Origin: a virus | Lineage: Duplodnaviria > Heunggongvirae > Uroviricota > Caudoviricetes | Reading direction: 5' to 3' (one strand) | DNA: 10,552 nucleotides | Virus record (IMG/VR): IMGVR_UViG_2684622669_000011 | Part shown: piece by piece, positions 1 to 10,552 of the stretch | Numbering within the stretch: the stretch's first letter is position 1 | How the letters are laid out: every line of letters begins with the position of its first letter | Program-made: the position numbers and the translations under genes | Notes under the pieces: generated by a model | Databases searched by the model: none | The model's input: only the letters and a program-made list of their open reading frames with translations | Told to the model about the DNA's origin: nothing

Positions 1-50
1 ATAATTTCTTAACTTTCCATGCAGAAGCAACGCCTGACGGCGTAAACATC

Positions 51-599
51 ATGTATCGCAGCAACGATGGCATGACAGAACGCGTTGAGGCCGTCTCATA
101 TATTGATGCCGTAAATCGTCTGGATGCCGGGGATTATGACGATAAACCAGATGAAGGTATGTCAATACATCTCGCTATTGCCGATGGCGGCAACCAGGGA
201 TATTTCGATTACACATCACATCATAACGTCATTATGTGGAGATGGCTGATCGCAACAGTATTCATGCTGGAAATGAGAGAGGAAAACGGCACTGTCAGTA
301 TCATTGATGATACTGGCAATCCTTCCGAAGTGGCTGTTTATTCCAACGGCATCGTCGCCATGCCGCTGTATCCAGTAGCAGAGCGCCTCGCTATGGCAAA
401 CAACATTGAGGGCGCGATGATAGAACGTTTTGGCATCGAGTCTGGCACAGAACGCGCCATCATTTTCTACAGAGCCATGATGGATGTGGAACAAGGAGCA
501 CTGACTCCATTTGGTCGTGAAACGCTTGCTGAACTTCACAACAGCTTTATAGCTGAACTGAATGAAAACGGCATGCCAGCGGAACCAGTGACGCACTGA
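51..599 (+). CDS. Hypothetical protein, 182 aa from the first ATG; may be 5'-truncated because the frame is open back to the window start. First gene of the operon that ends in the primase.
   Basis: ORF track; no in-frame stop between base 3 and the ATG at 51 and no clear SD before 51; stop TGA 597-599 overlaps the GAGGA SD (598-602) of the next gene; same strand and tight spacing with the downstream genes. No motif recognised. Confidence 0.55.
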   Translation: MYRSNDGMTERVEAVSYIDAVNRLDAGDYDDKPDEGMSIHLAIADGGNQGYFDYTSHHNVIMWRWLIATVFMLEMREENGTVSIIDDTGNPSEVAVYSNGIVAMPLYPVAERLAMANNIEGAMIERFGIESGTERAIIFYRAMMDVEQGALTPFGRETLAELHNSFIAELNENGMPAEPVTH

Positions 600-609
600 G
601 GATGGAACC

Positions 610-951
610 ATGATTACTAAAAATTTCCGACTGAATGCGCTGGCAAATAAGTATGCGTCGGCACTGTATAACCACATTACCTCCACCAGCGGCGGGGACT
701 ATTTCATGGTTGATGCGGACGGCGAGGCCGTACGTGTGGAAATCGTCAATGGAGTAAAAGGCGTTCGCAGCCTGATCGATAGCTACACACTGGCAGCCAT
801 GAAAGTGTTCTACCCGCAGTGGGAAACCGTGGGGATCGAGCTTCTTGAGCGTTGCGTCACTAAGGACGAATTGACTGACGTCGGGAGTGAGATATGGCAA
901 AGCATGGTTAATGACATGGGCGCAACTGTAGCGGGAGGTTCTCATGCGTGA
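610..951 (+). CDS. Hypothetical small protein, 113 aa, in the position held by small regulatory genes (epsilon/orf151-like) in P4-type elements.
   Basis: ATG at 610 preceded by GAGGA (598-602) at 7-nt spacing; 3' end overlaps the next ORF by 8 nt (944-951). No motif recognised. Confidence 0.65.
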   Translation: MITKNFRLNALANKYASALYNHITSTSGGDYFMVDADGEAVRVEIVNGVKGVRSLIDSYTLAAMKVFYPQWETVGIELLERCVTKDELTDVGSEIWQSMVNDMGATVAGGSHA

Positions 952-1315
952 AAATGCAGAAATGGCGCTTAGCTCCGCAATCGGAGAGCAGGTGGCAAAG
1001 ATTGCTGGTGCTGTGTGGATTCATAACCTTCATTCTACTGGTGAAGAGAAAATGGCAATTCAGACGCCAGAGGGACGCACCATTACTACATCTCTGAAGC
1101 CGTCAGATGTTTGTGATCTGATTTGCGCATTCATGTACCCAGCAATGAGGACTGTCCACGGCGATAAGTGGAAACTTGCGACAACCGCTGAATTTGATAT
1201 GTGGCTAAACAATGATGGCATGCTGACTGATTACGGAATAACCAAGTGGCAGATGCTGGTTAGCCATATCGCAAACGCTATAGACCACGTGGGGTACGGT
1301 GATGCGAAACATTGA
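944..1315 (+). CDS. Hypothetical small protein, 123 aa.
   Basis: ATG at 944 preceded by GGGAGG; stop TGA 1313-1315 overlaps the primase start, indicating translational coupling. No motif recognised. Confidence 0.65.
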   Translation: MRENAEMALSSAIGEQVAKIAGAVWIHNLHSTGEEKMAIQTPEGRTITTSLKPSDVCDLICAFMYPAMRTVHGDKWKLATTAEFDMWLNNDGMLTDYGITKWQMLVSHIANAIDHVGYGDAKH

Positions 1316-3569
1316 TCTTATCCGTCAGGTTATCAGTGCGTCTGAAAACAACTGGCCTCATGTGCTGGGCTGCCTGAACATAAATGTCCCTGACTCTCCG
1401 CGCCGTCATGCTCCCTGCCCTGCATGTGGGGGCAAAGATCGATTCCGGTTCGATGACAACGGGCGCGGTAGCTTCATCTGTAATCAGTGCGGCGCTGGTG
1501 ATGGGCTGGATTTAATTAAACGCGTAAATAACTGCGACACAACAGAGGCGGCGCTTCTTGCCGCTGATGTTCTGGGTATTGATTACCGGACAACGGAAAC
1601 ACCAGAAGCCACCAGCCAGAAACGGGAACAACTGGAATTTGATGACATGCGCAGAAAGGCTGTAAACGGCAAATCTGATTATCTGGTTGCGAAAGGGGTA
1701 GGTGATTTTACATTCCCCGTGTTGCCAGATGGATCTCTATTGCTGGCGCTGGTGGATAAATCCGGCGCAGTCACCGCAGCACAGACTATTACCTCACATG
1801 GTGAAAAAAGACTCCTGACAGGTTCGGCAAAGCGGGGGGCATATCACGCCATAAACGCACAGAAACGACCTCACAGCATCATAATTGCTGAGGGGGTGGC
1901 TACCGCCCTGTCGTGCCATTTAATTCGCCCTGACGCAATGACAGTGGCAGCAATCGACGCTGGCAACCTGTTGCCAGTAGCGGAAGTCATGCGCAGAACA
2001 TATCCACAGGCACAAATCATCATTGCCGCAGATAACGATCACCAGCAAGGAAACTCCGAAAGTGGAGGGATCAACACGGGGAAAGATGCCGCAGAGAGGG
2101 CCGCTATTTCCGTAGCTGGCTGGGTGTCTCTGCCACCGACTGACTATAAAGCCGACTGGAACGACTATCACCAACAACACGGGCTGGCGGCAGCCACAGC
2201 AGCATTTAAAGATTCGATGTACCAGCCACGGGGGAAAGGGGCGCAGGTGAAAAATCACAAACAGTCAGTCGGGGCGCTGAATGAGATCAGTTCTGGCGAG
2301 GTGTTAAGCGTTGATGAAATTGCTGTCCTCGAAGAAATCAACCGGACGTTTACGCATGTCACCATCGGCGGGAAACACAAGGTGGTGTCGCTAAAGCCTT
2401 CTCAAACCGGCGGTGTATCGCACGTTTTCGAGGATTTATCACAATTTCAGCATTATTTTCATCATAAACCGAGAGTCGCCAGAAAGCTGGCGGGATCGGC
2501 GTGGCTGTCATGGAGTGGGAAGAACTACAAGCCAGGAGGCGTAGGATTTTATCCAGTACCAGACAAATGCCCTGACGATGTTTTTAATCTGTATGAGGGG
2601 CTGGCACTGGAACCAATTGAAGGAGATTGCACGGTATACCTTAATCACCTGTTGCAGGTTGTCTGTGCCGGTAATGAGGAGGCATACCAATATCTTATCC
2701 AGTGGATGGCGCACATTATCCAAAAGCCTGATGAAAAACCGTCCGTGGCAATCGTGATGAAATCTGTCCCGGGCACAGGGAAAGGCACAACGGTTAAACC
2801 GCTGCTGCAAATACTGGGGCAGTACGCCGCCCACATTAACGGGGCGGGACATATTTCAGGGCGCTTCAATTCAATACTTGCTAACAAGCTACTGGTATTT
2901 GCTGACGAAGTGACGATCCACAAGCCGTCTGAAGCTGACAGACTTAAAGCGATTATTAGCGAACCGACGTTTAACCTTGAGCGCAAGGGAATTGATGCTG
3001 AACCAATGCCGAATTTTGCCCGGTTGATATTTGCCAGTAACAGCACACAGGTATTACAGGCAGGGATAAGAGAGCGTCGCTATCTCGTGCTTGAGCCATC
3101 TCCTGAAAAAGCACAGAGTCGGGAGTATTTTGATCGGCTGTACAGTTGGCTTAATGATGGCGGTGCCGCAAAGTTGCTTTGGCATCTTAAAGGGGTGGAT
3201 CTCTCAGGTTTTGACCCTCAACGAGCGCCACAGACCGATGCCTTACGTGAAGAAATCTTGCTGGGGCTGTCTGGCGTTGAATTGTTTCTTTATGGCGAGC
3301 TAATCAATGAACCTCCGTTTAATGGCGAAGTCCGTTTGTTTGCAAAGGATATGGTTAGTCGATTTGTAGCGTGGTCGCTTGAGCGTGGGGAAAAGCTTAA
3401 AGAGCCAGCAGCCAGATCACTACTGGGTAAATCACTTGCACAAATGGGGCTGGTGAAGCATGGAAGACCAGACCGAGGGAATGGCGTGTTCTACGAACTA
3501 CCAGAGGTCGGAGTTCTACAGGCTGCGTTTGCCCGTCTGATCGGTATGGGGGGTTATGATGTTTTTTAA
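1302..3569 (+). CDS. Primase-helicase of the phage/plasmid P4-alpha family (zinc-ribbon + Toprim primase + D5-like SF3 helicase), about 755 aa.
   Basis: Seen in the translation: zinc-ribbon CPACGG-KDRFRFDD-x9-CNQCG near the N-terminus; Toprim-like IIIAEGVATAL and IIIAADNDHQ acidic motifs; P-loop VMKSVPGTGKGT and Walker-B-like LLVFADEV. Start is either GTG 1299 (track) or ATG 1302; ATG 1302 is preferred because GGGG (1291-1294) sits 7 nt upstream. Followed immediately by iterons. Confidence 0.9.
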   Translation: MRNIDLIRQVISASENNWPHVLGCLNINVPDSPRRHAPCPACGGKDRFRFDDNGRGSFICNQCGAGDGLDLIKRVNNCDTTEAALLAADVLGIDYRTTETPEATSQKREQLEFDDMRRKAVNGKSDYLVAKGVGDFTFPVLPDGSLLLALVDKSGAVTAAQTITSHGEKRLLTGSAKRGAYHAINAQKRPHSIIIAEGVATALSCHLIRPDAMTVAAIDAGNLLPVAEVMRRTYPQAQIIIAADNDHQQGNSESGGINTGKDAAERAAISVAGWVSLPPTDYKADWNDYHQQHGLAAATAAFKDSMYQPRGKGAQVKNHKQSVGALNEISSGEVLSVDEIAVLEEINRTFTHVTIGGKHKVVSLKPSQTGGVSHVFEDLSQFQHYFHHKPRVARKLAGSAWLSWSGKNYKPGGVGFYPVPDKCPDDVFNLYEGLALEPIEGDCTVYLNHLLQVVCAGNEEAYQYLIQWMAHIIQKPDEKPSVAIVMKSVPGTGKGTTVKPLLQILGQYAAHINGAGHISGRFNSILANKLLVFADEVTIHKPSEADRLKAIISEPTFNLERKGIDAEPMPNFARLIFASNSTQVLQAGIRERRYLVLEPSPEKAQSREYFDRLYSWLNDGGAAKLLWHLKGVDLSGFDPQRAPQTDALREEILLGLSGVELFLYGELINEPPFNGEVRLFAKDMVSRFVAWSLERGEKLKEPAARSLLGKSLAQMGLVKHGRPDRGNGVFYELPEVGVLQAAFARLIGMGGYDVF

Positions 3570-3598
3570 TATAGTCTTTTTACAAGAAGATCGTTTTT

Positions 3599-3703
3599 AC
3601 CTGTACCACCTATACCACTTTGCTAATTCAGTATTAAAAACAGTGCGTTATAGTGGTACAGGTCAATATCTTACCTATACCAGACCTGTACCACCTATAC
3701 CAT
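3599..3703. repeat. Iteron-type replication origin: two near-identical 20-bp direct repeats flanking an AT-rich spacer that carries an inverted partial copy.
   Basis: ACCTGTACCACCTATACCAC at 3599-3618 and ACCTGTACCACCTATACCAT at 3684-3703 (19/20 identical); inverted GACCTGTACCAC on the minus strand at 3653-3664; partial ACCTATACCA at 3673-3682; AT-rich tract ttgctaattcagtattaaaaacag between them. Position directly 3' of the primase gene matches P4 ori/crr and PICI ori architecture. Confidence 0.6.
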
Positions 3704-3745
3704 TAACAAACGCATTTCTTCTGGCTGGCTGAGAGGAAACAACCA

Positions 3746-3976
3746 ATGATGAGCACACCATTTTACAAAGTGCGCCAGTTAGCTTCTTCCTCTGGCTGGC
3801 AGCTACGGTTTGAGGGGCGTTCAGACTGGCTACCCATTGCGGCATGGGCGAATGTTGAAATGTGTATTGACGGCGATACCGTTGAAATCATTATTCCCTG
3901 CGTGGCAAGTCGGGACGGCTGTATAGAGCCAACAGATATGGCAGCAGAAATCAGAGAGGTAAAACATGAACAATAA
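3746..3976 (+). CDS. Hypothetical small protein, 76 aa.
   Basis: ATG at 3746 preceded by GAGAGGA; stop TAA 3974-3976 overlaps the start of the next ORF (3966). Contains three Cys (C-x11-C-x6-C) but no recognisable Ogr/Delta-type zinc finger. Confidence 0.6.
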   Translation: MMSTPFYKVRQLASSSGWQLRFEGRSDWLPIAAWANVEMCIDGDTVEIIIPCVASRDGCIEPTDMAAEIREVKHEQ

Positions 3977-4703
3977 CTATTGCATACTGCAGGGAATGAC
4001 CAGAACGGAGCGCGAAGAATTAAAAAGTTTCGCTACACAGTGCGGGAATGCTGGCGACATCCAAAGTCTGGAACGCACTTTAATTATGATTGCGCACTGG
4101 ATGCGCCAGGGGCAAAGAGTTTCATTTACTGAATATGCCAGCCAGTGGACAGAGGCACAGCGCGAACGGAGCGACGGTAATCACTCAACACCCGAAATGG
4201 CGAAGCAATGGCCTTTCAGTGGTAAAAGCTGTATCAGTCCCGGTGGTTCAGATTATTACCCTGCTGGTGTGGGAGATGAGCCATGTTGTGACGAAACTGA
4301 AATCCGCCACGCAGTGACAGTAATTACCGCTGAATACCCACAATTTAACCTTGACGGACTGGCGCTCCACAACCGGAATGCGGACTGGGAAAACCCGCTT
4401 GATAACCCGTCATTTATCGTATCGGCGAAAAGCTGCCTGAGATGGATCAGAGACAACGGGATGAGTAATGCCCAGATTGAGAGCTTCCCGCAGGATAACC
4501 CCACATCTGACACGTTGAAGCATGAAGTGGAGCGATATAACCAGATAAACCACCAGCACAGTGATCACCCGCACTATATCCCCAACGGAGCATTTATTGC
4601 GGCGATGGTGGCAAGCGGCTACAAGGTTAAGCCAGCGGGAAGAATGAACGCATTTTTCAATATTTCAAAAAAGGGATTATGTGCTGCTATGGGTAAAAAT
4701 TAA
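3966..4703 (+). CDS. Hypothetical protein, 245 aa, Cys/His/Trp-containing, between the two iteron clusters.
   Basis: ATG at 3966 with an AGAGAGGT SD; translationally coupled to the 76-aa ORF; no ATPase or nuclease motif recognised; contains CCDETE and HQHSDHPHY stretches. Spurious internal ORFs on both strands (4090-4317 +, 4256-4513 -) ignored. Confidence 0.7.
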   Translation: MNNNYCILQGMTRTEREELKSFATQCGNAGDIQSLERTLIMIAHWMRQGQRVSFTEYASQWTEAQRERSDGNHSTPEMAKQWPFSGKSCISPGGSDYYPAGVGDEPCCDETEIRHAVTVITAEYPQFNLDGLALHNRNADWENPLDNPSFIVSAKSCLRWIRDNGMSNAQIESFPQDNPTSDTLKHEVERYNQINHQHSDHPHYIPNGAFIAAMVASGYKVKPAGRMNAFFNISKKGLCAAMGKN

Positions 4704-4709
4704 ATAAAT

Positions 4710-4812
4710 GGTACAGGTCTGTACAGGTGGGGAGAGGTCATTTTTACCCACCTGTACCACCTGCAGGCCGCGCCACACAAGGGTTTGTGACATGGTGGTA
4801 CAGGTGGTACAG
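4710..4812. repeat. Second iteron cluster (crr-like): the same CCTGTACCACC core in both orientations.
   Basis: GGTACAGGTCTGTACAGGTGG at 4710-4730 (inverted copies), CACCTGTACCACC at 4749-4761 (forward), GGTGGTACAGGTGGTACAG at 4794-4812 (inverted tandem). Lies about 1.1 kb from the first cluster, directly after the stop of the 245-aa gene. Confidence 0.6.
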
Positions 4813-5177
4813 CAAAAACAGCGATTTTCTTTATAAGGTATGTTTTGCTCATCTGGCAGACGGAGGTATTCGCTGCGGTTTGGCACATAGCCCAGAACAG
4901 CAAAGAGTTTTACGAGACTTTTGTAAAATCCAGTGTACAAGGGCGTGACGTTTTTGAAGGTGAGCACTACGAAATTTTCGTAGTTCAAAAAATAGCCTCT
5001 GAGATGTTGTTATGCCTGTTCAGCAAACCATCCGCATAGCTGATCGCGAATCAAATTACCAATGGAGCCAGAAGCAAGGGCAGAACTGGAAAGCGCCTGC
5101 CGTGAAGAGTAATGCGACTCCATAAATATAGTTTTTAGAGTCCATAAAAAAACTGTCAAAACCTGACATACAGAACG

Positions 5178-5210
5178 ATGCCACCAGCTACTGAACGGTG
5201 GCATTTTTTT
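5178..5210 (+). terminator. Rho-independent terminator on the + strand.
   Basis: Perfect 8-bp stem ATGCCACC (5178-5185) / GGTGGCAT (5197-5204) with an 11-nt loop, followed by a T7 run (5204-5210). On the minus strand no U-run follows the hairpin, so it is unidirectional. Confidence 0.6.
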
Positions 5211-5239
5211 GTGCTATTTGTTTCATATTTTGCAATCAC

Positions 5240-5280
5240 AATGATGAATGTTGCGTTTTATGAAACTATAATGACTGTTG
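5240..5280 (+). promoter_or_regulatory. Candidate sigma70-type promoter for the accessory operon: consensus -10 with a weak -35, possibly activator-dependent.
   Basis: Perfect TATAAT at 5267-5272, about 34 nt upstream of the ATG at 5306; the best -35 candidates (ATGAAT/GATGAA around 5243-5249) are poor. Direct repeats TGTTGCGTTTTAT (5249-5261) and TGTTGTTTTAT (5276-5286) flank the -10. No TGT-N12-ACA Ogr/Delta-type site found upstream. Confidence 0.3.
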
Positions 5281-5305
5281 TTTTATACAGTTATAAGGGG
5301 GCGTT

Positions 5306-5479
5306 ATGGCTATTTCAGTAAAGCCAGTATTGATAAGTGAGAAGCAAATGGAAGCGATAAAGAAAATTCAGGAGGAGCAGCGTAAAAAATCAGAGGTAGG
5401 AGTTGCGCCAACGATCCACGAAATTGCTCGGGGATTAATGGATAAGGCGCTGGCTTACACTTTAACTGGACGTGGGTAA
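5306..5479 (+). CDS. Small hypothetical protein, 57 aa, possibly a DNA-binding regulator; first gene of the accessory operon. Absent from the ORF track (below its length cutoff).
   Basis: ATG 5306 preceded by AGGGGG (5295-5300) at 5-nt spacing; stop TAA 5477-5479 lies 4 nt before the ATG of the next gene. Translation MAISVKPVLISEKQMEAIKKIQEEQRKKSEVGVAPTIHEIARGLMDKALAYTLTGRG has a short beta-like N-terminus followed by two predicted helices. Confidence 0.5.
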   Translation: MAISVKPVLISEKQMEAIKKIQEEQRKKSEVGVAPTIHEIARGLMDKALAYTLTGRG

Positions 5480-5483
5480 ATTT

Positions 5484-6827
5484 ATGGCTACGTGGCAACA
5501 GGGTATTAATTCTGGTGGTTTTCTGGCTGGCATCGGTACGCAAAATGAGAATGCGCCAAAGGCAAGCGACATTAACGCAACGCTTGGTCTGATCCGCGAA
5601 AACAATGAACTGGCTCGCTCAGGTGCAAATAACGTTGCTCTGACAGGTCTTCGTGGTCTGGCTGGAGTTGCTGACATTTATAAGCAGCAGCAACAGCAGG
5701 AACGTAAAGCGGCATTCCAGAAAGGTTATGCAGATGCTTATGCGTACGGTGACAGGGAGCAGATGCGTAATCTTATTACAGCATTCCCAGAAGAGTTTGA
5801 GGAAGTCCGTAAAGGGATGAGTTATGTCGATGATGCTCAAAGGGATGATTATGGCAATCTGGCGCTCAAAGCACAGGTAGCCTCATCGCTTGGTCAGGGC
5901 GCATTTGGCAGGTTCATGATGGATAATGAGCAGGAGATGCGTCGTTTAGGTATCCCTCCAGAAACTATTGCTGAAATGCAGGTTAATGACCCGCAGGGCT
6001 TCCAGCATTTCGCAGGTAATCTGGCGCTGTTTTCTCTCGGTCATGAGAAGTATTTCGATATCAAAGATCAAATGGAAGGTCGTCGACTTGAGCAAGGGCG
6101 ACTGGATGAAAGCATCCGTCAGGCTGACATGGAGAACGCGAGAGGATGGGCAAATATCCAGAACGCTCAACTAGACAGGGCTCAGCGAGCACAAATTCAC
6201 TCAGATGAGATGGGATTGAAGCTAATGGAGCTGGGGCAAAAAGGTAAGCCGTCAGCAGACTTAATTAAGGGATTAAATTCTGACATTACCAATTTTGGCA
6301 AAAATTATAACTCTGTCAGAGCGGCGGCAAACTCTCTGCAAGCCCTTAGCAAGGTAAATACTGGCGCTGCCCAACTTGGGATTATCTTCAACTACATGAA
6401 ATCTCTTGACCCGCAGTCAGTCGTTCGTGAAGGCGAACAGGTTCAGGTAATGCGGTCTGATGGCATATGGGGACAAATCAAAGGATACATAGACCAGCTT
6501 AATGCTGGAAACGGCCTGTCGCAGGAGGCAAAGGATAACATTGTTAACGCCGCAAAAATCAACGCCAATGCTATGGGGCAGCAGTTTAACCAGCAGGTTG
6601 ACGAGTATCTCGATACATATGGAGAAACTATTCCTCAGGGGCTAAGAAAAAGCCTTGAAAGAAGGAAAGCGAAGCTATTTGACGATGTTTCCGGGCAGCC
6701 TACATCACAGGCTGGCACTGGACAGGCAAAAGCGGCAACCGGAGGAATATCAGAAGGCGCAACGGCAACCAACCCTAAAACTGGTCAGAAAATCATTTAC
6801 AGGAACGGAAAATGGCAGCAAATGTAA
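5484..6827 (+). CDS. Hypothetical low-complexity protein, about 447 aa, Gln/Asn/Ala/Gly-rich and predicted largely helical; the track lists it as 451 aa from GTG 5472.
   Basis: Long ORF with a biased but coding-like composition; ATG 5484 is favoured over GTG 5472 because it sits 4 nt after the upstream stop. Contains a QQQQQ run (CAG/CAA tract 5685-5699); no P-loop or catalytic motif recognised; 3' end overlaps the next gene by 16 nt. Confidence 0.8.
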   Translation: MATWQQGINSGGFLAGIGTQNENAPKASDINATLGLIRENNELARSGANNVALTGLRGLAGVADIYKQQQQQERKAAFQKGYADAYAYGDREQMRNLITAFPEEFEEVRKGMSYVDDAQRDDYGNLALKAQVASSLGQGAFGRFMMDNEQEMRRLGIPPETIAEMQVNDPQGFQHFAGNLALFSLGHEKYFDIKDQMEGRRLEQGRLDESIRQADMENARGWANIQNAQLDRAQRAQIHSDEMGLKLMELGQKGKPSADLIKGLNSDITNFGKNYNSVRAAANSLQALSKVNTGAAQLGIIFNYMKSLDPQSVVREGEQVQVMRSDGIWGQIKGYIDQLNAGNGLSQEAKDNIVNAAKINANAMGQQFNQQVDEYLDTYGETIPQGLRKSLERRKAKLFDDVSGQPTSQAGTGQAKAATGGISEGATATNPKTGQKIIYRNGKWQQM

Positions 6828-8929
6828 TCTTACCGGAAGGTTTTGTGCTCGATGAACAACCTGATAACTCACAGTTTCCTGATAGTTCACAGCTTCCTGA
6901 TGGTTTTGTGCTTGATGCCCAACCAGAACAGCAGCAATCACCTTTGGTTTCACCAGAGGAAAATTCCAGACAGGAAAATGTTGTTAATAATGCTAACGGT
7001 TTCGACCGTTTTATGTATGGCGTTCTCAGTGGATTGATGGATGTTGGTAAAGGTGTTGGCCTGTTTCAGGATATGACACCAGAAGAGCAAGCAGCAATTC
7101 AGTCTCTACAGCAGAAGTTAGCGGCAAAACCATCAACCGCACAAGATGTTGGTGAGTTCGTTGGACAAGCAGCGCCATTTGTTAGTGGTGGTGGGATTAT
7201 TTCTCAGGTTCCCAAAGGGGCGGCAAGACTGGCTGCCGCCGCAGGGCTTGGTGCTGGAGAAGGGGCTATTGTAGCCAATGGAACAAATAGCGATGTTGCT
7301 TCCGGCGCTGCTATTGGCGCTGTGGCTGGCCCTGTAGCCGAACTTGCTGGCCCTGCAATTAATAAAATAGCTGGGAAATTAACCAAGAAGAATGTTTCTT
7401 CGATTCCAGATATTGAGGGGATTACTCCTGCCGAAGAGAAAATTCGTAAGTTATCTGCACAAGGCAACCCAAATCTTGCCTCTTCGCTTGAAGGGCTAGA
7501 TCTAAAACCTCAGAAAGAAATTGTTGAGGCTGCAAATAGGCTTCATGTTGATTCAGTTCTTCCTTCTCATTTATCAGGAAATGAGCAATACCAAGCTGTA
7601 GAGCAAGCCCTAAAGTCACGGACAGGATCAGCGTTAAAAGCTCAAGAAGATAAAGCAATAAGCGAATTAGCCTCTAGTGCTGGCAAGATAATCGATGATG
7701 TTGCTGGTGCGCCAGATGCGTTAGCTATGAGCGAAAAATATATTTATCAGATAAATAGTAGAATGGAAGCACTAAAAAACCGTAGTGATCAGTTATATAA
7801 ACGTGTTGATTCCGCTCTATCACCAAGAACAAAAGTCGAAGCAAATAACACAAGCACTATGCTGGAAAAAATCGCTGATGATTTAGGAGGGTGGGATAAT
7901 CTTGACCCAATAGAAAAGCGAGTTTTTACAGCAATAAACCCCGGCCCAGATAGCATCCTAACGTATGCAAATTTAAACAGGCAAAGGCGTTTAGTTGGTG
8001 ATGCCCTAAATAAAAAGCAGGGGCCATACAAAGATGCTGATAAAGAAGCGCTATCAAGACTATATGGAGCTTTAGCTGAAGACCAAAAATCTGTCTTATC
8101 CAATACTGGATACTTGCGAGATTTCGAAGTCGCACAACGCCTTGTAGCTATGAGAAAAAACTTAGAAAGGCAAATGGTAAATCTTCGCGGGAAAACACTT
8201 AATGGGGATATAGCGTATAAAGTAACGAATTCTCTTCAATCTATGGCAAAAGGTGATGCGAGAGGGTTTCGTGAGATTATGCAAAATACTCCATCAAGAA
8301 CATTGCGAAGGGAGCTAGTAGGAACAGCATTAAGAGATATGCTTTCCTCTGGGAAGCGTGGGGCCGACTTTAATCCATCTGGCTTTGCAGATTGGTGGCA
8401 AAACTTGCAACACAGTGGACAGCTAAAGACTTTGGCTGAACATTTGCCAAAAGAAACAATGAGCGGACTATATGATGTATACAAAGTTGCCAGAGCAATA
8501 AAAAATGCTAAAGCGCATGAAATATCTACTGGTAAGCTGAATGAGTTTGTAAACAGATTTAATCGGGTAACAGCTCCATACGAACTAGCAGCAAAACACA
8601 TTCAAAAAATAGGCACGATGGTAGGCGCTCATTTTGGATCGCTTGGAGCCATTGCTGGGGCTGATATTGGAGCAAGATTGGCGAGTAAAGCTCGATTAGC
8701 TGGTGGAGCAGGGGCGGCTGATGCTGCGGATAAATTAATTGCCTCGCCAGCCTTCCAGAGCGCAGTAAAAAATCTACACGGAAAAGCGCCTGGGCACATT
8801 GTTGATTCACGTATCAGGCGCTCCCCTCAATGGAAGAGTTTTTTTAACTCTCTTCCTGAACAGGAAAAACGGACCATCGCCAGACTGGGCATCATTACTT
8901 GGCTATCTAATGATCCAGATAATGACTAG
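6812..8929 (+). CDS. Hypothetical large protein, 705 aa, with an N-terminal tandem repeat (LPEGFVLDEQ / PDNSQF / PDSSQL / PDGFVLDAQ), two Gly/Ala-rich glycine-zipper-like segments and an AT-rich central region.
   Basis: ATG 6812 with an AGGA SD (6801-6804); overlaps the stop of the upstream gene, indicating coupling. No Walker A, HExxH or other catalytic signature seen. Gly/Ala-rich stretches at residues about 118-189 (nt 7163-7378) and 599-642 (nt 8606-8737). Stop TAG 8927-8929. Confidence 0.85.
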   Translation: MAANVILPEGFVLDEQPDNSQFPDSSQLPDGFVLDAQPEQQQSPLVSPEENSRQENVVNNANGFDRFMYGVLSGLMDVGKGVGLFQDMTPEEQAAIQSLQQKLAAKPSTAQDVGEFVGQAAPFVSGGGIISQVPKGAARLAAAAGLGAGEGAIVANGTNSDVASGAAIGAVAGPVAELAGPAINKIAGKLTKKNVSSIPDIEGITPAEEKIRKLSAQGNPNLASSLEGLDLKPQKEIVEAANRLHVDSVLPSHLSGNEQYQAVEQALKSRTGSALKAQEDKAISELASSAGKIIDDVAGAPDALAMSEKYIYQINSRMEALKNRSDQLYKRVDSALSPRTKVEANNTSTMLEKIADDLGGWDNLDPIEKRVFTAINPGPDSILTYANLNRQRRLVGDALNKKQGPYKDADKEALSRLYGALAEDQKSVLSNTGYLRDFEVAQRLVAMRKNLERQMVNLRGKTLNGDIAYKVTNSLQSMAKGDARGFREIMQNTPSRTLRRELVGTALRDMLSSGKRGADFNPSGFADWWQNLQHSGQLKTLAEHLPKETMSGLYDVYKVARAIKNAKAHEISTGKLNEFVNRFNRVTAPYELAAKHIQKIGTMVGAHFGSLGAIAGADIGARLASKARLAGGAGAADAADKLIASPAFQSAVKNLHGKAPGHIVDSRIRRSPQWKSFFNSLPEQEKRTIARLGIITWLSNDPDND
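6860..6895 (+). repeat. In-frame 18-bp tandem repeat (two units plus a partial third) inside the 5' end of the 705-aa gene.
   Basis: CCTGATAACTCACAGTTT (6860-6877) followed by CCTGATAGTTCACAGCTT (6878-6895) and CCTGATGG; bracketed by the 16-bp direct repeat GGTTTTGTGCT(C/T)GATG at 6837-6852 and 6901-6916. Confidence 0.7.
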
Positions 8930-8948
8930 TGAATGGCCACGGATGGCC

Positions 8949-9374
8949 TCAATCTTTATTCTTTGAAATAGAGTCATTGATCTTTTCGAAACACCAATGA
9001 AATCCACAAAAGAGAGCTACACCAATATAACAATACAAAACTATCAACCACCTTTCAGTGTCCGAAGGGTAAAAAACATCAATTACATAAGCAACACCAA
9101 TTGGTATTAATGCTAGTAATAACATCGACACAGGACGTACAAACTTCTGAACTATATCAATTTTATAGAACCACAAGGCGGTATGTTTAATGATATAAGT
9201 AAAGATGGCTGCGCCAATAATGGCAAAAAACACCATCGATAAAGTCGGGTATAACTTTGCGACAATTAAACCCAACAAAATAATTATAACTGCCTGCCCC
9301 CTCACACCAACCCTCCCTTTAGCTTTGTTTAGAATGGCAATCATCATATATCCAAGACATGGCATTTGGTACAT
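8949..9374 (-). CDS. Small multi-pass membrane protein (141 aa from ATG 9374, or about 118 aa from GTG 9305), convergent with the 705-aa gene.
   Basis: Translation has three to four strongly hydrophobic helices (VIIILLGLIVAKL, MVFFAIIGAAIFTYII, VSMLLLALIPIGVAYVI, WLIVLYCYIGVALFCGF). No SD before ATG 9374, but a strong AAGGGAGGG (9312-9320) precedes the in-frame GTG 9305 at 6-nt spacing. Very AT-rich. Confidence 0.6.
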   Translation of the reverse strand: MYQMPCLGYMMIAILNKAKGRVGVRGQAVIIILLGLIVAKLYPTLSMVFFAIIGAAIFTYIIKHTALWFYKIDIVQKFVRPVSMLLLALIPIGVAYVIDVFYPSDTERWLIVLYCYIGVALFCGFHWCFEKINDSISKNKD

Positions 9375-9522
9375 AGCTTGGGTCGGGATTTCAAATCCGC
9401 TCCCCGTTGATGGGGCCGTTACAGTACGCGCATATCCTCTTTATGTGAAACAGGAAGATTTTTCTGATATCACTGCCACAGCAAAACACCAATTTCGTGA
9501 CCAGTACGCGCGCGAGGGGTAT

Positions 9523-9546
9523 CAGTTGCAAAAAATTTTGCAACTG
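9523..9546. promoter_or_regulatory. Candidate operator: perfect 11-bp inverted repeat with a 2-bp spacer.
   Basis: CAGTTGCAAAA (9523-9533), spacer AA, TTTTGCAACTG (9536-9546); flanked by the 11-bp direct repeats GACCAGTACGC at 9499-9509 and 9552-9562. Lies in the non-coding region upstream of the minus-strand membrane gene. Confidence 0.5.
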
Positions 9547-9828
9547 CGTCCGACCAGTACGCACACGATGGCGGGGAGCACCATAAAACTGTTCTCTACA
9601 TAAGACAGAGTGGTGGTGATGTGTTGATTATCGGCGTATATGCGCACAGGACGCGCTATGACGATGTTTTATGCGGGTACACCAATCACATGTATCTGGT
9701 GTGATCAATCGCGTTACATGACATCTCATGTTGTGCTGGTGATTATCACGACGTTCTGAATCTGGCCTTTGCCTGATATTTTGCGACAAGTACGCGCGCG
9801 TAGCATCGACAGCATACACATTGGATAT

Positions 9829-10029
9829 TCATTTTGTGACCAATGCGATAAGTAGCGGGATAAGAATTGATAAAATCAACAGGACGATGATCCACTTTTG
9901 ATTCTCGTCCATCTTATCTGCTAGGCGACGCTCCATTCCGTGCATATCACCGCGAATGGCAATCATCTCATTGCGAACATCCGAGAAGTGGTTGGCTTGA
10001 TGTTCAATGTGTGGCGTTCTGCCTTTCAT
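9829..10029 (-). CDS. Small tail-anchored membrane protein, 66 aa: charged, predicted helical N-terminus and a single C-terminal transmembrane helix (topology like XhlA-type phage membrane proteins).
   Basis: ATG 10029 preceded by GAGGA at about 6-nt spacing; translation ends in WIIVLLILSILIPLLIALVTK after a charged segment (VRNEMIAIRGDMHGMERRLADKMDENQK). Confidence 0.65.
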   Translation of the reverse strand: MKGRTPHIEHQANHFSDVRNEMIAIRGDMHGMERRLADKMDENQKWIIVLLILSILIPLLIALVTK

Positions 10030-10108
10030 GTCTGATCCTCACCTATCGTCACCACCTGCTGGTGTATAAAGGTATTAGCCCAAGCAGCTTTCCAATGGGC
10101 ACTCATGT

Positions 10109-10552
10109 TTATACGCTGACCTTACAATCAATCACCGCTTTTAACTTTTCAGCATTGCTTCCCTGACGCTTCCACGCGCTGTAAATATCTTTATCCCACG
10201 CTTTACCAGCTTTTGTTTGATAGCCTGCTTCATTGATCCGTTCAGCTATCACACGCCCATTATCAAATCCCTGTTGGATGGTATCGGCAATGATCTTTAT
10301 AACTGCCGTTTCGTTATATGGTTTTGGTGGGATGTTCGGCTTTCCGGCAATAAGCGACGCAGCGGCTTTTTCCATGCGCTCCACCAGCCCAAGCATTCGT
10401 GAATCAATAGACTTTTCCGGCTGCCCCAGCTTCATGCGAATCGCATCAACAAGCCAAGAGGTTTTATCTCCTCCAGAAGCGAGAACAGACCGATTAAACT
10501 CATCCTGCAATTCAGATGGGATGCGGAACGCGATCAGATTAGATTTGCTCAT
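10109..10552 (-). CDS. Putative DNA-binding protein, 147 aa: ribbon-helix-helix-like N-terminus plus a C-terminal motif reminiscent of the recombinase-type HTH. Its start codon coincides with the last base of the window.
   Basis: N-terminus MSKSNLIAFRIPSELQDEFNRSV fits the RHH beta-strand/helix pattern; C-terminal INEAGYQTKAGKAWDKDIYSAWKR resembles the LN-x-G-x2-T-x2-G-x-W motif of serine-recombinase DNA-binding domains (from memory, not searched). The upstream region is outside the window, so the true start cannot be confirmed. Confidence 0.65.
   Translation of the reverse strand: MSKSNLIAFRIPSELQDEFNRSVLASGGDKTSWLVDAIRMKLGQPEKSIDSRMLGLVERMEKAAASLIAGKPNIPPKPYNETAVIKIIADTIQQGFDNGRVIAERINEAGYQTKAGKAWDKDIYSAWKRQGSNAEKLKAVIDCKVSV

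Follow-up and report, generated by a model that had tools for sequence, protein, structure and literature searches.

Why a protein encoded in phage-like DNA should carry two isolated segments rich in glycine and alanine is the question raised by the IMG/VR virus record IMGVR_UViG_2684622669_000011, a stretch of 10,552 nucleotides that we refer to as the window. The protein is 705 amino acids long, and its open reading frame (ORF) occupies 6812..8929 on the plus strand. An initial annotation of the window had pointed to residues 118-189 (segment 1; 7163..7378, plus strand) and residues 599-642 (segment 2; 8606..8737, plus strand), both placed correctly, with the quoted strings offset by 1-2 residues. 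We found that the protein is, as judged from its sequence, a gene-16-class ejection protein of P22-like podoviruses, and that a genuine glycine zipper is present in segment 2 only. By analogy with P22 gp16, we consider it somewhat probable that the two Gly/Ala-rich segments act as conserved, conditional membrane-insertion or oligomerisation elements at the inner-membrane end of the ejection channel.

We assign the protein to this class because a gp20-like gene precedes its ORF, because its nearest homologues lie in P22-type gene clusters, and because it matches both PHROG families and a gp16 profile. The upstream partner is a gp20-like ejection protein of 447 amino acids when read from the ATG at 5484 (5484..6827, plus strand; GTG 5472 in the ORF list), with a match to Pfam Inj_translocase (E-value 7e-73) and 54% identity to P22 gp20 over 212 residues. 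The first 16 nucleotides of the 705-residue ORF overlap the 3′ end of this gene, including its stop codon. RefSeq annotates an identical coding sequence of 2118 nucleotides in Escherichia coli chromosomes. In P22, genes 14, 7, 20, and 16 are followed by sieA on the opposite strand; the order in the window (gp20, the 705-residue gene, and a convergent ORF for a hydrophobic protein of 141 amino acids) matches this layout. Setting identical copies aside, the nearest homologues (two proteins, at 79% and 62% identity) are encoded on metagenomic contigs, right after a coat-gp4-gp10-gp26-gp14 (DUF2824)-gp7-gp20 series, and the remoter homologues of Hungariovirus C130_2, Skarpretter (Skarprettervirus), and Ralstonia phage RSK1 (Firingavirus) occupy the slot after the "DNA ejection" (gp7) and gp20 genes.

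Family searches gave the same answer. The protein matched phrog_6704 from end to end (E-value 1e-174) as well as phrog_770, "DNA transfer protein" (E-value 1e-50), of which P22 gp16 is a member (E-value 2e-266), and an hhalign comparison of a profile of 63 homologues with a gp16-type profile of 15 sequences scored 99.45% (E-value 4e-22) over 559 columns. The initial annotation was thus right in naming DNA-pilot/ejection proteins among its options. Its tape-measure option was rejected on gene context and family matches, as no tape-measure match was found in Pfam or PHROGs and the homologues reside in podovirus clusters. Pfam and NCBIfam scans returned no family for the protein. Its proposed non-enzymatic nature also holds, since the Pfam scan detected no SLT or other enzymatic domain, although many close relatives do carry an N-terminal lytic transglycosylase.

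Pairwise BLASTP of the protein against P22 gp16 was not significant (E-value 0.49), which agrees with the published description of gp16 proteins of P22-like phages as highly mosaic, with a mutual identity of just 22-26% (PMC10461980). Such mosaicism is evident here. Residues 1-190, segment 1 included, are near-identical to Kapi1_058 of phage Kapi1 (87% by module), which also belongs to phrog_6704, and at the DNA level window positions 5483-7284, running from gp20 through codon ~158 of the 705-residue gene, are 90% identical to Kapi1. In contrast, the core and C-terminal parts of the two proteins are only 28% identical. Residues ~150-701 instead show 59% identity to the C-terminal two thirds of Sf101 gp13 (911 amino acids), and 59-64% identity to this protein and its kin (C130_2 gp37, Skarpretter gp17, and RSK1 gp16) over a span that includes the zipper. 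These relatives share the gene position after gp7 and gp20 and a common fold (Foldseek, BFVD), and they differ in carrying an N-terminal SLT lytic transglycosylase domain that is absent from the window protein. Compared with P22 gp16, which is 609 rather than 705 amino acids long, the window protein occupies the same slot after gene 20 and ahead of a convergent membrane-protein gene, and differs in combining a Kapi1-type N-terminal module with an Sf101-type core. Profile comparison aligned the Kapi1-type N-module with P22 gp16 residues 67-171 at 98.6%. Precomputed tables list PF26808 for P22 gp16 and for many of its homologues, and they have no such entry for P0001, the window protein's cluster, or other Kapi1-type N-module proteins. 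We conclude that the window adds a new, mosaic protein to the already known gene-16 class.

The two segments stand out by composition. Glycine, alanine, and serine account for 54% of the residues in each, vs 29% in the entire protein, and 30-residue windows with at least 43% Gly+Ala occur solely there. Segment 1 (GQAAPFVSGG...KIAGK) is marginally hydrophobic and lies within the Kapi1-type N-module. It contains a first short hydrophobic stretch at residues 136-155 (GAARLAAAAGLGAGEGAIVA; 7217..7276, plus strand) with G147xxxG151, then the polar loop NGTNSD, and then the most hydrophobic 19-mer of the protein at residues 162-180 (VASGAAIGAVAGPVAELAG; 7295..7351, plus strand) with G165xxxG169xxxG173. 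Segment 2 (KIGTMVGAHFGSLGAIAGADIGARLASKARLAGGAGAADAADKL) lies downstream of the core and is followed by a conserved AAxKLIxSPxF motif. Its zipper core, G601-x3-G605-x3-G609-x2-G612-x3-G616-x3-G620 (8612..8671, plus strand), comprises G601xxxG605xxxG609 and G612xxxG616xxxG620, so that the pattern (G/A/S)xxxGxxxG is present in both segments.

The initial annotation had read repeated small-xxx-small spacing into both segments, and this reading held for one of them. In segment 2, 16 pairs of small residues are spaced i/i+4, vs 11.7 ± 1.7 in composition-preserving shuffles (P 0.016), and on a helical wheel glycines 601, 605, 609, 612, 616, and 620 cluster within 100 degrees of arc (resultant 4.99 of 6, P 0.001). 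In segment 1, the count is 18, vs 19.7 ± 2.2 in shuffles (P 0.84). Kim et al. are said to have described, in 2005, transmembrane glycine zippers of the form (G/A/S)xxxGxxxG in channel and pore-forming proteins. Segment 2 resembles these in that two GxxxGxxxG units follow each other along the same side of its helix, and differs from them in that its host helix is too little hydrophobic for a transmembrane call and matches no Pfam zipper family. Glycine zippers also pack soluble helices. Our literature search found no paper that links glycine zippers to ejection proteins.

Conservation among the 63 homologues follows the zipper closely. Each of the six zipper glycines is the top residue in 83-98% of the sequences, while the intervening residues average ~45%, and G631 is invariant. 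In segment 1, only six glycines are well conserved: G151 is invariant, and G114, G118, G128, G147, and G169 are Gly in 78-90% of the homologues (86% for G169), with a small residue at position 173 in 90%. The chance-level periodicity of segment 1 is what would be expected if Gly/Ala richness were a matter of composition without biological meaning. The conservation data contradict that explanation, which we regard as extremely improbable: the protein has only two Gly/Ala-rich windows, and both have counterparts at the corresponding places in relatives as distant as 27% identity, with invariant glycines.

To place the segments within the family, we used an AlphaFold2 monomer model built on the 63-sequence alignment (mean predicted local distance difference test score, pLDDT, 68.6). 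The model has a central all-alpha domain at residues ~227-585 (7490..8566, plus strand; pLDDT ~90), which corresponds to the conserved Sf101-type core. A phmmer search with this core alone retrieved 1058 representative clusters at an E-value of at most 1e-3, and a Foldseek search of BFVD gave many matches to podovirus proteins of 600-1000 residues, 47 of them with E-values up to 1e-3 (C130_2, E-value 7e-21), some of them labelled transglycosylase, peptidase M15B, or "injection protein". The core family is thus a large family of internal virion proteins. We then surveyed the flanks of the core in 116 representatives that had been chosen by their match to the core only and are 27-73% identical to the query. 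A 25-residue window with at least 40% Gly+Ala was present within 130 residues upstream of the core in 93% of them and within 90 residues downstream in 78%, and with at least 48% in 74% and 51%, respectively; inside the core, which is 3-4 times longer, the corresponding values were 47% and 10%. The mean best Kyte-Doolittle value of 19-residue windows (KD19) was 1.22 upstream, 1.13 downstream, and 0.64 inside the core.

The same arrangement of a Gly/Ala segment, a helical core, and a second Gly/Ala segment is found in Kapi1, Sf101, C130_2, Skarpretter, and RSK1. P22 gp16 is laid out alike, with marginally hydrophobic Gly/Ala stretches at residues 79-97, 132-150, 165-183, and 544-562 on both sides of its helical core. 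Because this layout is shared by most of the 116 relatives, by P22 gp16, and by the five phages just named, the architecture is a family trait. The order is a variable N-module, a Gly/Ala segment, an all-helical core of ~360 residues, a second Gly/Ala segment, and a C-terminal tail of ~60 residues. The strict register of segment 2 is narrower in distribution. Kapi1, C130_2, Skarpretter, and RSK1 have a Gly/Ala-rich hydrophobic stretch at the segment-2 position in another register (LTTAIGAPGAGTAGVLFSL in Kapi1_058), and the GxxxG register is also looser in P22 gp16. Because the stretch of distant relatives differs in register, we take the strict register to be a trait of the Sf101-type subfamily.

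What such segments might do is suggested by studies of P22. According to the available account of Perez et al. 2009 (cited in PMC10461980), P22 gp16 binds to membranes of Salmonella in vitro and helps DNA to enter liposomes. About 12 copies of gp16 are injected by P22, according to PMC8402733. An in situ cryo-electron microscopy study reports that gp7*, gp20, and gp16 join one after the other to build a channel of ~50 nm that reaches the cytoplasm (PMC13622523), and gp16 is reported to form the cytoplasm-reaching end of this trans-envelope channel (PMC10461980; PMC13622523). Putative C-terminal transmembrane helices have been found in all gp16-like proteins (PMC8954989). In addition, the gp16 changes G532W and P546S escape the inner-membrane protein SieA (PMC10461980). 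In our profile alignment, P22 gp16 residues G542, P546, G549, A553, and G557 align with G601, G605, G612, G616, and G620 of the window protein, and segment 1 aligns with P22 gp16 residues ~120-171. In this alignment, segment 2 lies at the site where the inner-membrane exclusion protein appears to act in P22.

Gene-16-class proteins are carried in the capsid, leave it through the tail at infection, and join gp7 and gp20 in a trans-envelope DNA channel, of which gp16 makes up the inner-membrane and cytoplasmic end. We propose that the Gly/Ala segments are soluble or flexible during storage in the capsid and threading through the tail; once ejected, they would serve helix-to-helix packing in an oligomer and enter, or lie against, the inner membrane. 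The one-face zipper of segment 2 is suited to tight helix-helix packing in the oligomer. Segment 1 is a Gly/Ala-rich, hairpin-like stretch for which a second role, in docking to the tip of the gp20 tube, is possible. Contact with a membrane or channel and helix packing in an oligomer, both proposed in the initial annotation, are plausible because reports on P22 gp16 describe it as associated with membranes and as a component of the channel; support from the sequence is weaker than that annotation implied, and transmembrane prediction, as described below, does not favour membrane contact.

A number of observations count against a role of the segments at the membrane or in an oligomer. No segment of the protein reaches the transmembrane threshold: the best 19-mers by the Kyte-Doolittle scale score 1.37 (residues 162-180), 1.21 (residues 137-155), and 1.12 (residues 603-621), vs a KD19 threshold of 1.6, and their Hessa sums are +7 to +8 kcal/mol (+7.4 for residues 162-180), so that all are at least +7 kcal/mol. 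Control transmembrane helices from P22 SieA and the 141-residue ORF had KD19 values of 1.9-2.6 and Hessa sums of -1 to +5. Kapi1_058, which shares segment 1, was deposited with a DeepTMHMM annotation of no transmembrane helix. In the AlphaFold2 model, pLDDT is below 50 at residues 117-226 and 596-612, as it is at residues 1-50, and the helix at residues 610-643 scores only 57-68. Segment 1 is thus formally predicted in this monomer model as a disordered linker, the outcome that the initial annotation had set against its own proposal. Foldseek against PDB returned nothing below an E-value of 0.4, and therefore no solved structure of this fold is present in the library up to April 2026; phmmer against PDB sequences gave only chance-level hits, to a glycine-rich stretch of the OmpA family (E-value 0.22) and to myosin (E-value 0.5). 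The Pfam glycine-zipper families Gly-zipper_Omp, Gly-zipper_OmpA, Gly-zipper_YMGG, and Rick_17kDa_Anti had no match at an E-value of 10 or less in either segment or in the whole protein.

Further points of this kind concern spacing and the comparison with P22. Spacing in segment 1 is at chance level, and the segment has no one-sided glycine face either (P 0.34); the exact glycine spacing of segment 2 is found only in the subfamily with an Sf101-type C-domain. The bulk of the hhalign score comes from the N-terminal region, and the comparison reports no local confidence for the segment-2 columns. Residues 476-609 of P22 gp16 are dispensable for membrane association in vitro, according to the available account of Perez et al. 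(cited in PMC10461980), and therefore the equivalent of segment 2 is not the main membrane anchor in P22.

Several of these observations would fit an explanation in which the Gly/Ala stretches are flexible, low-complexity linkers that allow the protein to unfold, thread the narrow portal and tail channel, and refold, with no lipid contact or specific interfaces. Residues 152-205 are modelled as coil with a pLDDT of ~30, following a low-confidence helix at residues 136-151, and the helices predicted at residues 593-606 and 610-643 are likewise of low confidence; together with the pLDDT below 50 at residues 596-612, sub-threshold hydropathy, the transmembrane-free annotation of the Kapi1 homologue, and the shuffle-like spacing of segment 1, this is what linkers would look like. 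Ejection proteins are also described as refolding extensively (PMC8954989). A pure linker, however, does not need position-specific glycines, yet six of them are 83-98% conserved on one face, and G151 does not vary at all. Hydrophobicity peaks in these segments, both in the window protein and across the 116 relatives, and they are poor in charged and polar residues, with an Eisenberg mean hydrophobicity of 0.56-0.61 and a low moment at residues 600-621, unlike the disordered N-terminal tail at residues 1-50 (6812..6961, plus strand), which is rich in Gln, Pro, Asp, and Glu. Moreover, some relatives lie above the transmembrane threshold at the equivalent place (KD19 above 1.6 upstream of the core in seven and downstream in four of the 116 relatives, and 1.79 in the C-terminal segment of a gene-16 protein from a related island), and a P22 SieA-escape change falls at an aligned position. 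On balance, we consider the linker explanation unlikely. As a side observation, the N-terminal tail carries a short duplicated motif, LPEGFVLDEQPDNSQ and LPDGFVLDAQPEQQQ (LPEGFVLD / LPDGFVLD), which is kept in Kapi1-type homologues.

Comparison of the window with five other loci (L001, L003, L004, L005, and L006) revealed a second aspect of segment 1. Across these six loci, the C-terminal half of gp20 and the N-module of gp16 co-vary as one mosaic block, and the gp20 N-terminus and the gene-16 core recombine independently of it. Among the window, Kapi1, and L005, the gp20 C-terminal half is 92-100% identical and the gp16 N-module 87-95% identical. This co-inheritance hints, at the sequence level, at an interaction between the two parts, and because the N-module is co-inherited with the gp20 C-terminal half, we suggest that segment 1 may dock gp20. 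One could go further and view the segments as assembly interfaces in the virion or in a periplasmic tube rather than as membrane elements, such that segment 1 docks gp16 on the C-terminal end of gp20 or serves incorporation into the procapsid, and segment 2 zips subunits together in a soluble tube. Maintenance of the gp20-gp16 block in the face of a core only 28% identical to that of Kapi1 is consistent with this idea, as is the report that purified gp16 forms rod-like assemblies (PMC10461980). On the other hand, the co-variation comes from just six loci and involves neighbouring stretches of DNA, for which linkage alone may be a sufficient explanation; P22 and Sf101 have a common gp16 N-module (75% identity) yet share only 36% identity in the gp20 C-terminal half; and the top hydrophobicity of the segments is left unexplained. 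A purely assembly-related role, which overlaps in part with our proposal, is possible but in our view rather doubtful, and we continue to favour conditional membrane-insertion or oligomerisation elements.

A functional parallel is offered by T7 gp16, an internal core protein that is ejected into the cell and whose N-terminal lytic transglycosylase parallels the SLT-bearing relatives of the window protein (PMC8954989). T7 gp16 is alpha-helical and was purified as a soluble monomer, with two putative transmembrane regions flanking its central part; these regions have been proposed to refold and traverse the inner membrane, with the protein in oligomeric form (PMC8954989). At 1318 amino acids, it is twice the size of the window protein, and the likeness is one of functional analogy, not demonstrated membership. 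PDB searches gave no sequence or fold match to T7 gp16, and the presence of T7 gp16 chains in the searched copies was unchecked.

Having considered the protein itself, we turn to the DNA that carries it. The window is not a phage but part of a P4-like integrative island of ~18-20 kb that is flanked by yicC and dinD on the chromosomes of E. coli. This island encodes an integrase, a helix-turn-helix regulator, an AntA/AntB antirepressor, DUF4222, Ash, an alpha-type primase, and PerC, and in strain 41EC2 also a Doc toxin; its annotated gene content includes no coat, portal, terminase, tail, or lysis genes. Members of the island family extend over window positions 1-10552, L002 6221-24402, L007 6227-24304, and L011 1816-19624. 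At the same site, the variant of strain MS14385 (L007) carries a complete gp14-gp7-gp20-gp16 cassette. Relative to it, 443 bp of the window (5455-5896), with a different gp20 N-terminus, replace 1531 bp comprising gp14 (DUF2824), gp7, and the start of gp20 (L007 17539-19068). Because gp14 and gp7 have been lost, the ejection cassette in the window is incomplete. An upstream ORF for 245 amino acids was considered as a gp7 homologue and rejected, as it is not homologous.

The related island L011 is integrated at tRNA-Thr near proA and has a different integrase, an Icd-like gene, and gp14-gp7-gp20 followed by a P22-type gene-16 protein of 670 amino acids, the one with the C-terminal KD19 of 1.79 mentioned above. 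Its gene-16 is followed by a true SieA homologue (16151-16765, minus strand; 30% identity over 108 residues, E-value 2e-7, NRYPGEA motif) and an Abi gene. The island family therefore has complete gp14-gp7-gp20-gp16 cassettes, with different gene-16 types, at two integration sites. Across this widespread family, an ejection-protein cassette (complete, or reduced to gp20-gp16 as in the window) replaces genes for capsid remodelling, and a SieA-like membrane protein is often encoded beside it; an Icd-like gene is present in some members. In the window, the slot of P22 sieA is taken by the convergent 141-residue ORF (8949..9374, minus strand), which has four strongly hydrophobic stretches (KD19 1.9-2.3); it has no detectable similarity to P22 SieA, and its match to NCBIfam CBO0543 is sub-threshold.

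These islands are not rare. Of 5426 complete E. coli genomes, 252 cover at least 80% of the junction between the island backbone and the full cassette, and 191 cover the window-type junction to that extent. The 705-residue gene itself is present in 84 complete genomes of E. coli when a minimum of 80% of its length is required, and among the matches listed most copies are complete and at least 99% identical. We also observed disrupted copies. In two proteins (P0003 and P0004), the C-terminal 59% is fused to an integrase Arm DNA-binding domain, and other E. coli copies (H82, H89, and H27) display an IS1 insertion, truncation to 85%, and a nearby group II intron with IS3 (strain FORC_031).

Given this setting, the 705-residue gene could be left over from a block of P22-like prophage genes that was captured along with a superinfection-exclusion gene. 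It would then be an inert passenger, and the segments would have no function here. Such an origin would account for an island with no coat, portal, terminase, tail, or lysis genes, for the loss of gp14 and gp7 from the window variant, for copies that contain an IS1 insertion, have been shortened, or are joined to part of an integrase, and for the SieA homologue beside the cassette of L011. Against it, the 2118-nucleotide ORF is intact and most of the listed matches are at least 99% identical, copies too alike to measure purifying selection; complete cassettes with differing gene-16 types occur at two integration sites, and the junctions are found in hundreds of genomes as detailed above. We regard an inert passenger as improbable. 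An alternative, which we put forward tentatively and consider somewhat unlikely, is that the islands are satellites of P22-like phages that would load helper capsids with their own ejection proteins. They might thereby enter lysogens in which SieA stops the gp16 and gp20 that the helper itself encodes: the P22 SieA-escape changes map to the C-terminal parts of gp16 and gp20, and one of them aligns with a zipper position of segment 2. Alternatively, the island proteins could poison helper progeny. Our literature search found no paper on satellites or islands with ejection-protein cassettes. A search of the island for a P22 pac-site sequence found none, a result that is uninformative since pac sites vary by phage type.

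The remainder of the window contributed a few further observations. Another gene encodes a primase-helicase-like protein of 756 amino acids similar to P4 alpha (1299-3569, plus strand), in which a domain scan detected a Zn-ribbon (Zn_Ribbon_Prim) along with Toprim_3 and DUF5906/VapE-like domains. The small ORFs ahead of this gene fall into phage PHROGs with no assigned function. Between the 245-residue ORF and the small ORF preceding gp20 lie ~600 bp (4704-5305) with no ORF of at least 50 amino acids and a lower GC content, of 0.41-0.45. Positions ~4907-5461 are 90-96% identical to many E. coli genomes with no annotated ejection-protein gene under the match. Rfam detected no family in the window, and a promoter and terminator scan of the window found nothing above shuffled expectation. 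PADLOC returned no defence match for eight window ORFs (the gp20-like and gp16-like ORFs, the minus-strand ORFs of 141 and 147 amino acids, and four small ORFs), the primase and three ORFs upstream being outside the scan.

Taken together, our findings yield a specific, testable statement, namely that gene-16-class ejection proteins share a Gly/Ala-rich segment on either side of their helical core. That the conserved one-face zipper of one subfamily aligns with a SieA-escape site of P22 provides a modest new mechanistic handle, and G601-G620 are precise residues with which to probe the inner-membrane end of the podovirus DNA channel and its block by superinfection exclusion. The island context is a more unusual observation than the zipper: several percent of the complete genomes of E. 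coli contain capsid-less P4-like islands with ejection-protein cassettes. Should the cassettes prove functional, they would give mobile elements a new means of exploiting P22-like phages or of resisting them.

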